The notes beneath the pieces are model-generated. The model was not told where the DNA came from. It saw only the letters and a list, made by a program, of their open reading frames with translations, and made no database searches. The translations under genes were made by a program, and so were the position numbers. Shown one piece after another: positions 10,279 to 62,014 of a DNA stretch of 64,000 bases. Position 1 is the stretch's first letter. Each line of letters opens with the position of its first letter. Source of the stretch: Eledone cirrhosa (taxonomy: Eukaryota); the NCBI GenBank assembly GCA_964016885.1, contig OZ024743.1, positions 128,588,001-128,652,000 on the forward strand, in the 5' to 3' direction.

Positions 10279-10579
10279 TGGAGGCACATGGCTTAGTGGT
10301 TAGAGCATTGGCCTTGCAATCGAAAGGTTGTGAGTTCAATTCTCAGACCGGGTGATGTGTTGTCTCCTTGAGCAAGGCACTTTATTTCACATTGCTCCAG
10401 TTTACTCAGCTGTAGAGTAATCTACTGATATCAAAATCAGTAGTATATTGAAAAATGGAAAAATAGGGTAGGGGGTCGTTTCGTGATTTTGTTGGCTTAA
10501 ATGGATTGAGAACCTTTCCCGTCCCACCCTTGCAAGCAGGGAAAAGTGGACGTAAAATGAAATGATGATGAATGATGAT
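10279..10579 (+). mobile_element. Family C SINE with RTE-type tail; middle replaced by a hAT-derived segment
   Basis: Head and tail are near-identical to 43833-44179; 10417-10516 matches 5660-5778. Confidence 0.88.
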
Positions 10580-10598
10580 ATATATAGGAACGAGTAGG

Positions 10599-10694
10599 AC
10601 CCCGACGGCTGAGCTCAACCCGTTTCGACGGCTAATTCTGGATTAAATGAAAATTTTTATCCTGGTATTTGGATAGCCGAGCTTCTCAAGGGGT
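10599..10694 (-). ncRNA. Type I hammerhead ribozyme, U3-A8 core variant
   Basis: Minus strand: ACCCC UUGAGAA G..CGGCUA[loop]UAGCCGUC GAAA CGG[..]CCG UC GGGGU, with a GUC cleavage triplet. Confidence 0.65.
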
Positions 10695-10790
10695 AATTCC
10701 ATATATGGTCAAAGTGATTGTCGCAGGGATTGGTCAAAAGGTGTAAGGAACCAGGTGGACCATAACGCACCAAAGTACTCAATACCTCCG

Positions 10791-10829
<39 letters not shown>

Positions 10830-34028: not shown

Positions 34029-34359
<331 letters not shown>

Positions 34360-41348: not shown

Positions 41349-41490
41349 TACATGTATATAACAACATAGTTATATATATATAAATATATGTATATATATA
41401 TATGTAAAAGGTAAACAGAAATAACAACACAATCGGTACAGTATATAGAAGGAATATATTAGGTTAACGCTTGAAATAGCAGGGAGAGGG

Positions 41491-41526
41491 TCTTAAAGTT
41501 TCGGACGCTAGTCCTTCATCAGAAGA
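41491..41526 (-). ncRNA. Ultra-minimal hammerhead ribozyme motif
   Basis: UCUU CUGAUGA A GGAC-UAGC-GUCC GAAA CUUU AAGA; stem III almost absent. Confidence 0.72.
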
Positions 41527-43834: not shown

Positions 43835-44175
43835 GGAGGCACATGGCTTAGTGGTTAGAGCATTGGCCTTGCAATCGAAAGGTTGTGAGTTCAATTCTCA
43901 GACTGGGTGATGTGTTGTTTCCTTGAGCAAGACACTTTATTTCACATTGCTCCAGTTTACTCAGCTGTAGAAATGAGATGATAGGGACTGGGGTCCCTAT
44001 CATTCCACTGCAAAGTGGTCGTGGAGGTGCCACGGCAAAAAAGCACCCAGCACTCACTGTAAATGAGGTTGGTGTTAGGAAGGGCATCCAGCTGTAGAAA
44101 TCAAGCCAGCATCAGTTCCCGTCCCACCCTTGCAAGCAGGGAAAAGTGGACGTAAAATGAAATGATGAATGATGA

Positions 44176-60495: not shown

Positions 60496-60871
60496 TTTAT
60501 GTAATATTCGGCTTGTAGTGGGAAAAAAGGGTTTTAGTTCTGTGACGGCAGAATAATGTTCGTTCAATTCTGTTATTCAGCAATTTCTTCTTGTGTGTGA
60601 TTATGTAATAAATCTCAAGATTACACAATTTGCATAAATTTTGGCTCCTGGAAAAGCTTTGGGTTTTAGCTAATTTCTCCCATTTTAGGGTAAACTTTTG
60701 ATCGCTATCCCTGAGCGTCCAAGCTTTTTCTGCTAAAGTTGTTACATTTCTTTGGCTCTGGTGTTTTATTGAGTAAGAATGCCTATATAATCGAGATTTA
60801 AACGATGTTGCCGTTGATCCCACGTAATACCACTCGTTGCCTCCGGATTTAATGGTACACTTATAAATAAA

Positions 60872-62014
60872 GTAGTTAACTTCCTGGATGTCACACTCAA
60901 TTTAAACTCTGGTTTGATTAAACCGTTTCATAAATTGAATGAAAATCTCAAATACGTAAATGTTGGGTCTAACCACCCCATCTCTATAATTAAATCTATC
61001 CCTAAAAATATTTCCCTTAGAATCTCGGGTCTATCTTCTAACATACAAGTATTTAAGGAACACGCCGAGTACTACGATAACGCCCTTAGTAAAGCAGGCT
61101 ACCTCAACAAAATAGAGTATATAGATGGGAACAATCAAAACACCCAAAATAAATCCCACATAGGTAAATATAATAACACAACACCAAACCACACTTACTA
61201 CCATAGTATGCACACCAGTAAACCAACAAACAAAACTAATAGAAAGCGATGCAAAGAGTACTTATGGTATAACCCCGAATACAATAGTTCCATTAGTACA
61301 AATTTACCAGTACTCTTCTTTAAAATAATTAAGAGACATTTTCCTACATCACACAAATACCACAAAATCCTAAACCCTACCACTATAAGACTGTCATACT
61401 CTACAGCGTTAAACCTTGAACAACACATAAAAAAGATCAATACTAGAAGGTTAAACGAAAACACTAAGAACTTAAGTACAAAGAACACAAAAAAAACAGT
61501 AGACAATACACTACAGAACATAAATAAACCACACCTAAGTTCGTCCGCAATACTACTCCAGAGAAAACCCAACGTACACAACTGTAACTGCACCTATCCT
61601 GACAACTGCCCCCTCGGCAATAACTGCCTGGAAAAAAATATTATTTATAAGTGTACCATTAAATCCGGAGGCAACGAGTGGTATTACGTGGGATCAACGG
61701 CAACATCGTTTAAATCTCGATTATATAAGCATTCTTACTCAATAAAACACCAGAGCCAAAGAAATGTAACAACTTTAGCAGAAAAAGCTTGGACGCTCAG
61801 GGATAGCGATCAAAAGTTTACCCTAAAATGGGAGAAATTAGCTAAAACCCAAAGCTTTTCCAGGAGCCAAAATTTATGCAAATTGTGTAATCTTGAGATT
61901 TATTACATAATCACACACAAGAAGAAATTGCTGAATAACAGAATTGAACGAACATTATTCTGCCGTCACAGAACTAAAACCCTTTTTTCCCACTACAAGC
62001 CGAATATTACATAA
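60872..62014 (+). CDS. PLE ORF C-terminal part: RT domain 7/thumb, linker, GIY-YIG endonuclease (no start codon)
   Basis: VNFLDVTL, SNHP, WYNP, RLSYS, CNC..CPL..C, IIYKC..YYVGST..FKSR..H, CKLC..E, LNNR.E..CRH. Confidence 0.9.
   Translation, partial: VVNFLDVTLNLNSGLIKPFHKLNENLKYVNVGSNHPISIIKSIPKNISLRISGLSSNIQVFKEHAEYYDNALSKAGYLNKIEYIDGNNQNTQNKSHIGKYNNTTPNHTYYHSMHTSKPTNKTNRKRCKEYLWYNPEYNSSISTNLPVLFFKIIKRHFPTSHKYHKILNPTTIRLSYSTALNLEQHIKKINTRRLNENTKNLSTKNTKKTVDNTLQNINKPHLSSSAILLQRKPNVHNCNCTYPDNCPLGNNCLEKNIIYKCTIKSGGNEWYYVGSTATSFKSRLYKHSYSIKHQSQRNVTTLAEKAWTLRDSDQKFTLKWEKLAKTQSFSRSQNLCKLCNLEIYYIITHKKKLLNNRIERTLFCRHRTKTLFSHYKPNIT

Follow-up and report, generated by a model that had tools for sequence, protein, structure and literature searches.

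A variable 3-8 pair in the hammerhead motif of a Hydra-like Penelope-like element of Eledone cirrhosa

The active fold of a hammerhead ribozyme contains a pair between positions 3 and 8 of its core, canonically C3-G8, and the 2'-OH of G8 is the proposed general acid (PMC6155905). A natural U3-A8 pair has been described in several ribozymes (Perreault 2011, PMC3088659), and such ribozymes were active in vitro according to Przybilski and Hammann as cited in the same paper. About 1,300 U3-A8 motifs were reported from Penelope-like elements (PLEs) of Schistosoma (Cervera and de la Pena 2014, PMC4209133). In Fig. S3 of that study, two rows have U3-A8 and one has U3·G8 (Saccoglossus), and no C3·A8 row was seen in the alignment as extracted. 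Pairwise mutagenesis of a type III hammerhead found that only the C3G/G8C swap rescued activity; the other single and double mutants of the 3-8 region had low activity, and U3-A8 was not rescued (PMC9901934). A natural hammerhead candidate with the core CUGANAA did not cleave (PMC8490949). No amplified C3·A8 family turned up in the literature searched; one could be described in Przybilski and Hammann (2007), Nelson and Uhlenbeck (2008), or Lunse (2017), which may also test C3·A8 and U3-A8 cores.

The role of hammerheads in endonuclease-bearing PLEs has been stated to be unclear, and Naiad PLEs thrive without canonical hammerheads (PMC8557442). In a reconstituted PLE, mutations in the hammerhead left insertion in vitro unaffected, unprocessed RNA was the main template, and hammerhead cleavage required the protein (PMC11167929). 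All 26 Hydra rows of File S2 in PMC8557442 have the core CUGANGA and a short stem II. The older state of the Hydra clade was therefore probably C3-G8, although the canonical descriptor used to find these rows demanded C3-G8 and would have passed over variants. Here, we describe a PLE hammerhead from Eledone cirrhosa in which the 3-8 pair varies among subfamilies. It was identified in a 64,000-nucleotide stretch of contig OZ024743.1, which is referred to as the window.

A decayed hammerhead copy in the window

Inspection of the sequence located every element of a type I hammerhead with the core UUGAGAA on the minus strand of the window (Table 1). A preliminary description of this DNA had proposed such a motif with stems I to III, GAAA, and GUC, and all of these elements were found as described. 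Its span of 10586-10790 contains the motif, but the hammerhead itself fills only 10700-10587, and the remainder is a rearranged "tail" of the element. Three helices surround the core and both ends lie in stem I, as in type I hammerheads. The core contains U4 G5 A6, A9, G12 A13 A14, A15.1-U16.1, and H17, with position 7 free. The canonical C3-G8 pair is absent from the window copy, which has U3-A8 instead; because U3-A8 is an accepted natural variant, the hammerhead is classified as having a variant core. The register of the core is fixed by the family, since position 7 takes G, U, A, or C while U4, G5, A6, and A9 stay. Rfam gave no hammerhead match here at the gathering threshold or at E values up to 10, and the earlier remark that standard CUGANGA searches would miss the motif thus holds.

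Table 1. Features of the hammerhead-bearing insertion, in window coordinates
Feature	Position	Strand	Remark
Short (TA)n downstream flank	10578..10586	.	
3' end of pseudo-LTR, Hydra-like PLE (assigned by motifs), subfamily S6	10587..10740	-	5'-truncated
Stem I, 3' strand	10587..10603	-	GGGGU 10603-10599, internal loop, GUUCC 10591-10587
Cleavage triplet	10603..10606	-	GUC 10606-10604; predicted cleavage between 10604 and 10603 (established hammerhead numbering)
Stem III	10605..10623	-	ACGG/CCGU, closed by palindromic GAGCUC loop; 5 bp in the family
G12 A13 A14 A15.1	10623..10626	-	GAAA
Stem II	10627..10682	-	G10.1 (10682)-C11.1 (10627), 2x1 internal loop, CGGCUA (10679-10674)/UAGCCG (10634-10629), internal loop, distal helix
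Catalytic core	10683..10689	-	UUGAGAA; U3=10689, G7=10685, A8=10684, A9=10683
Stem I, 5' strand	10690..10700	-	outer GGAAU 10700-10696, inner ACCCC 10694-10690
Tail piece of 43 nt (start of 5' UTR)	10743..10785	-	100% identical to copy L127
Few bases matching the end of the long tail, inverted orientation	10786..10792	+	by eye, copies L017 and L023
(TA)n microsatellite target, upstream flank	10792..10826	.	

The window copy is a 5'-truncated and rearranged insertion between two TA runs. Its 43-nt tail piece normally lies downstream of the hammerhead and was moved upstream here by the rearrangement. The inverted tail bases next to it likely arose by template switching, as judged by eye from copies L017 and L023. 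In other words, the feature in the window is a decayed copy of a hammerhead that sits at the end of a high-copy retrotransposon.

The copy is also predicted to be inactive. When folded alone, its best fold was a non-hammerhead form (z -1.21), and the hammerhead fold lay 4.8 kcal/mol above the minimum versus 0.7 in an intact copy of the same subfamily, S6. Among 20 representatives of the family, this gap was 0 to about 3 kcal/mol in 17; the other three (5.8, 8.1, and 14.9 kcal/mol) all carry private damage. The window copy differs from its subfamily at four sites. Three of these changes are private and were seen in nearly all of the contig depth (four public runs from one study): those at 10672 and 10643 lie in stem II, and a C-to-G change at 10619 breaks the fifth pair of stem III. 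The 4.8-kcal/mol gap results from these private changes, and misfolding caused by them would render this copy inactive.

Two features of the predicted fold are family-wide. Stems II and III share CGGC/GCCG, and a hairpin over GAAA (equivalent to window 10634-10605) competes with the hammerhead. The alternative hairpin lies within 0-3 kcal/mol of the hammerhead fold in several subfamilies and is possibly a built-in off state. The palindromic loop of stem III is kept in all subfamilies and would also permit dimers.

The window contains other insertions. A second insertion of the same PLE family at 34128-34340 lies in (TA)n and consists of two hammerhead 3' halves in inverted arrangement plus the 97-nt tail, with no core. 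At about 41490-41525 on the minus strand there is a small type I hammerhead of a different family (copies L055 and L125) with a canonical CUGAUGA core and, in the window copy, a change adjoining the cleavage triplet. Fragments of a more distant Hydra-like RT-endonuclease open reading frame (ORF), 31-33% identical and with an inverted copy, occupy 60533-61978. Heads resembling tRNA adjoin TA runs at 10289-10346 (+) and 43842-43905 (+) and probably belong to a tRNA-derived SINE.

How common is a U3-A8 core in this genome? A structure scan of 1.2 Mb returned 42 rows versus 0 in the complemented and reversed control. Sixteen rows belonged to this PLE family; the others comprised 20 rows with C3-G8, five with U3-A8 from four families, and one with U3·G8. 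The further U3-A8 hammerheads, from at least four families, are at L024:1047(+), L306:742(+), L124:1629(+), L055:252(-), and L301:2783(+), and two of these families share a long stem II and a long palindromic stem III. No linked ORF was found in the fetched DNA upstream of the L024, L016, and L124 hammerheads. The label "rare" given to U3-A8 in the preliminary description therefore does not fit, as natural U3-A8 is published and at least four other families in the loci examined have it.

The Penelope-like element and its ends

The full unit of the element, measured between tandem cleavage sites in copy L127, is 3,552 bp. It contains a single ORF that encodes a reverse transcriptase (RT) followed by a C-terminal GIY-YIG endonuclease (YRDD at 340, VIY at 583, and YIG at 598 in the 710-aa frame of copy L123). 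The hammerhead is located 1,167 nt past the stop codon of this frame and, in tandem copies, 191 nt upstream of the start codon. The ORF displays DKT, a CxCX5C linker, CxxC before E, and CxH after N, and has RWR where the Hydra clade has RWK. Pfam and PDB searches with the ORF gave no match. The copies show (TA)n insertion together with tandem and inverted pseudo-LTR structures. The unit is longer than is usual in the Hydra clade (generally under 3 kb), a tendency rather than a strict criterion. Taken together, the protein motifs appear to place the element in the Hydra clade, the reference proteins having been compared by eye with supplement excerpts. A Neptune label was rejected because the CX2-5CxxC linker before GIY-YIG is absent. 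Assignment to the non-LTR retrozymes was rejected as well, as the copies are dispersed with an ORF upstream and are not short non-coding tandem units.

The ends of the copies lie at fixed distances behind the predicted cut site. Of the 364 distinct 3' halves, the largest group (137) stops 17 nt past the cut site, as the window copy does, and 96 stop 97 nt past it, in both cases directly in (TA)n; none of the 364 ends at the cut site itself. An exact 30-letter pattern covering GAAA, stem III, and the cut site had 34,830 matches in the genome, all of them spanning the cut site. Read-through across the cut site is partly built into this sample, because the copies were collected via hammerhead patterns. 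The 5' ends did not pile up at the cleavage site, with 2 of 445 alignments starting at 0 or +1, but the biased sampling makes this figure uninformative. The 3' halves outnumber the full cores by about six to one. In many copies the 5' truncation falls within stem II, 35-47 nt upstream of the cut site (equivalent to window 10635-10655), and often flips into an inverted copy. This zone is possibly an RT stall or fold-back site.

Core states, subfamily history, and selection

The genome that was searched is 3.0 Gb and rich in (TA)n; a first look gave 3,939 candidates, 40 of which were scored. Core states were then counted with the same 20 flanking letters held exact and the seven core letters left free, and the reversed-pattern controls of the genome counts had 0 matches. 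This count yielded 5,614 matches: 3,975 with U3-A8 (71%), 1,284 with C3·A8, 33 with U3·G8, and six with C3-G8, which leaves 316 in other states by subtraction and a G8 total of 39. Exact matching of this kind gives too low a count for old subfamilies and scores inverted insertions twice, once per arm. In the immediate 26-letter context of the window copy, C3·A8 was more frequent than U3-A8 (844 vs 619 of 1,493). An assembly error is not behind C3, which made up 37-41% of the contig depth in runs X1-X3 (one sample) and 4% in the small run X4. The check proposed earlier was whether U3-A8 is fixed in the family, and it is not, given the C3·A8 matches and a small U3·G8 subfamily. The same counts show U3-A8 to be an inherited, family-level state and not a random decay product of CUGANGA, as it makes up 3,975 and C3-G8 only six of the 5,614 matches. 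G8 was also observed in five S3-like copies (L143, L145, L201, L252, and L280), three of which share an upstream letter. They possibly form a small C3-G8 or U3·G8 offshoot and are partly a sampling effect.

Subfamilies were defined on 277 full-core copies extracted from 310 loci, a non-random sample enriched for G8 copies from which five unclassified copies were later left out. Trees were built from the repeat region without the core (96 rows) and from the endonuclease region of the ORF (50 rows). Both trees give the same chain of subfamilies, S0, S1g/h, S1a-S2, S3-S5, and S6-S8, with S0 absent from the ORF tree. The corresponding 3-8 states are U-A in S0, U·G in S1g/h, U-A in S1a-S2, C·A in S3-S5, and again U-A in S6-S8, which are the youngest and include the window copy. 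In other words, the pair drifted among U-A, U·G, and C·A along the chain without fixing C-G. Copies of S1g differ from their group majority by a median of 0.069, and this figure declines to 0.012 in S8; small old groups have lower values. A single clade of S3-S5 was rejected by the ORF DNA (p-AU 2e-6; 49 rows, groups named once the earlier trees were known); L104 was left out of this test as its ORF piece belongs to another family. A quick protein tree with distant outgroup ORFs was unresolved, with the root near S3. Wherever the root falls, the trees have the youngest U-A subfamilies descending from C·A source elements.

The C·A source elements were autonomous. Between S3 and S4/5, 480 codons show 35 synonymous and 14 non-synonymous differences, and the resulting pN/pS of 0.11 (private changes, 0.49-0.60) indicates purifying selection on the ORF. 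Of the pS of 0.36 that accumulates over the whole chain, the C·A phase contributes 0.11, or about 30%. Selection for a Watson-Crick pair would also account for the presence of U3-A8 in 15 of 20 groups and for its return after C·A. A midpoint tree (141 rows of unequal length) suggested that U3-A8 arose twice from C·A. This is now less likely, as the more divergent U3-A8 subfamilies that were found later make U3-A8 more probable as the older state. A recombination origin of U3 in S6 was set aside, because the letters flanking position 3 are of S5 type on either side in both S5u and S6.

The path from S0 to S8 also provides a measure of selection, with 71 changes in 40 loop sites as the reference rate. 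The 12 invariant core sites show 0 changes versus 21.3 expected at the loop rate, and 30 stem sites show 6 versus 53. Positions 3 and 8 together changed four times versus 3.55 expected, always by transition, and position 7 changed three times; if S1g/h is a side branch, position 8 changed once, not twice. The all-transition pattern at positions 3 and 8 is a weak signal, with a P of about 0.05 (34 of the 71 loop changes are transitions) and an n of only 4. Within the C·A phase, conservation of the core is modest: it shows 0 changes versus 4.2 expected (P 0.015) with the flanking branches included and 0 versus 2.4 (P 0.09) without them. Pairing was found in 94.9% of 452 cells in the 20 representatives and in 23-47% of cells in slid controls. 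Double changes occurred at three pairs, one of them in a single copy, and compensated pairs lie in stem II; relatedness inflates the shuffle control.

The immobile core and the loop-like rate at positions 3 and 8 lead to the conclusion that, at the level of sequence evolution, the hammerhead is a selected feature and the 3-8 pair its loosest element. The preliminary description had reasoned that U3-A8 keeps the pair and so suggests selection for activity. Strong purifying selection is indeed evident in the rest of the core, but the argument from the pair itself is not supported, as positions 3 and 8 change as fast as the loops. Furthermore, in the mutagenesis cited above only the C3G/G8C swap restored activity (PMC9901934).

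A probable slow or conditional ribozyme and its relation to known systems

We consider it most probable, at roughly 60%, that the conserved type I hammerhead of this Hydra-like PLE cuts slowly or conditionally, with the 3-8 pair relaxed and the other core positions fixed. Slow or conditional cutting is suggested because the pair has relaxed to any pyrimidine-purine combination. The thousand-copy C3·A8 subfamilies are predicted to cut poorly; their core did not cleave in another natural hammerhead (PMC8490949), and the ribozyme is likely slow and barely needed by the element. Reverse transcription may begin internally, at two positions immediately behind the ribozyme, on RNA left uncut or re-ligated at that point, in which case fast cleavage would be unneeded and may be disfavoured. 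Occasional and perhaps protein-assisted cleavage after GUC could trim tandem transcripts; this would keep the core under selection while a weak 3-8 pair is tolerated. C·A and U·G wobbles resemble each other in geometry.

How else can these patterns be explained? U3-A8 may be a fully working compensated core under strict Watson-Crick selection, with C·A and U·G as short-lived, mildly deleterious excursions. This is unlikely, although U3-A8 makes up 71% of the matches, is the state of the first and the last subfamilies in the chain, returned after C·A, and is reported active in vitro (PMC3088659), and no transversion was fixed at position 3 or 8. The C·A phase is hardly a short excursion, as it comprises three subfamilies with 1,284 matches and a pS of 0.11 of about 0.36. 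Strict selection on the pair is at odds with the loop rate of positions 3 and 8 and with the fate of C3-G8, which one transition could produce from either U·G or C·A but which characterises no subfamily (six of 5,614). Compensation itself conflicts with the unrescued U3-A8 in pairwise mutagenesis (PMC9901934). We assign a similarly low probability to the opposite idea that catalysis is irrelevant and the fold is a binding or positioning element for the RT, or a relic. It draws on the 34,830 exact 3'-half matches that all cross the cut site, on insertions that end at fixed distances behind it, on the hammerhead mutants that still insert in vitro (PMC11167929), and on the Naiad PLEs without canonical hammerheads (PMC8557442). 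However, the nucleotides that are conserved are precisely the catalytic ones (U4, G5, A6, A9, G12, A13, A14, A15.1, U16.1, and C17), and position 7 is free over 71 loop changes, a pattern that a binding site need not show.

A slip of register could in principle rescue the C3 subfamilies if C3 pairs with G7, which gives CUGA-GA without N7 and an extra A before G10.1. Position 7 is G in all copies of S3, S4, and S5, this G was gained on the same branch as C3, and PLE hammerheads typically carry one more nucleotide between 9 and 10.1 (PMC4209133). Against the slip, G7 persists in the U3 subfamilies S6, S7g, and S8 as well, with only three N7 changes on the path its stasis is unremarkable, and none of the literature covered here shows activity of a core that lacks N7; we regard this explanation as clearly less probable than either of the preceding ones. 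By far the least credible explanation is that the motif arose by chance or by random decay from CUGANGA. The missing Rfam match and the non-hammerhead minimum-energy fold of the window copy speak for it, but thousands of copies and a core conserved around a free position 7 refute it, and compensated stems and zero control matches likewise speak against it.

The finding worth following is the long C3·A8 phase of the family, since U3-A8 itself is a known variant that adds little on its own, being published and common in this genome. Tentatively, and with somewhat more doubt than belief, we suggest that, for about one third of the history that can be traced, the lineage transposed with a C3·A8 pair that is dead on the bench, and that it later recovered the pair, with the other catalytic nucleotides held fixed during the C·A phase. 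In that case, natural C·A hammerheads would either work, through a protein or a slip, or PLE hammerheads would be selected to be nearly off. With U-A, U·G, and C·A versions set in scaffolds that are almost the same, the genome offers a natural allelic series in which the purpose of PLE hammerheads is directly testable. The family also provides in vivo evolutionary evidence for strong selection on the core in successful source elements that long tolerated a broken 3-8 pair. Moreover, CUGANGA descriptors and Rfam miss this family, whose full cores number at least 5,600 in this genome.

Several described systems resemble this element. The Cercyon PLEs of Schistosoma (PMC4209133) likewise carry type I hammerheads in a pseudo-LTR, with U3-A8, G10.1-C11.1, a long stem II, and a palindromic stem III region. 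Unlike the minimal Cercyon hammerheads, the one described here has a 5-bp stem III, could fold as a monomer, and has an extended stem II of about 55 nt; it also lacks the extra nucleotide after A9 and includes whole subfamilies with C3·A8. Animal non-LTR retrozymes contain type I hammerheads related to PLE repeats (bioRxiv 2026.07.22.740005), whereas the present element is dispersed and protein-coding rather than a short non-coding tandem repeat. The PAc element (Poseidon) of Anolis (Frangieh 2024, PMC11167929) similarly has two internal RT starts behind the hammerhead, an optional tail, AT-rich targets, and uncut RNA as template. It belongs to a different clade, however, has C3-G8, and its hammerhead overlaps the start of the ORF, whereas here the hammerhead lies 190 nt ahead of the ORF, with a tail of 80 nt. 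The Hydra-clade PLEs (Craig et al. 2021, PMC8557442) share DKT, CxCX5C, CxxC before E, CxH after N, and the C-terminal GIY-YIG, as well as (TA)n targeting, a hammerhead in the repeat, and inverted 5'-truncated copies. The element differs from the 26 Hydra rows found with the canonical descriptor, all of which have CUGANGA and a short stem II, and from the clade in its 3,552-bp unit, versus generally under 3 kb.
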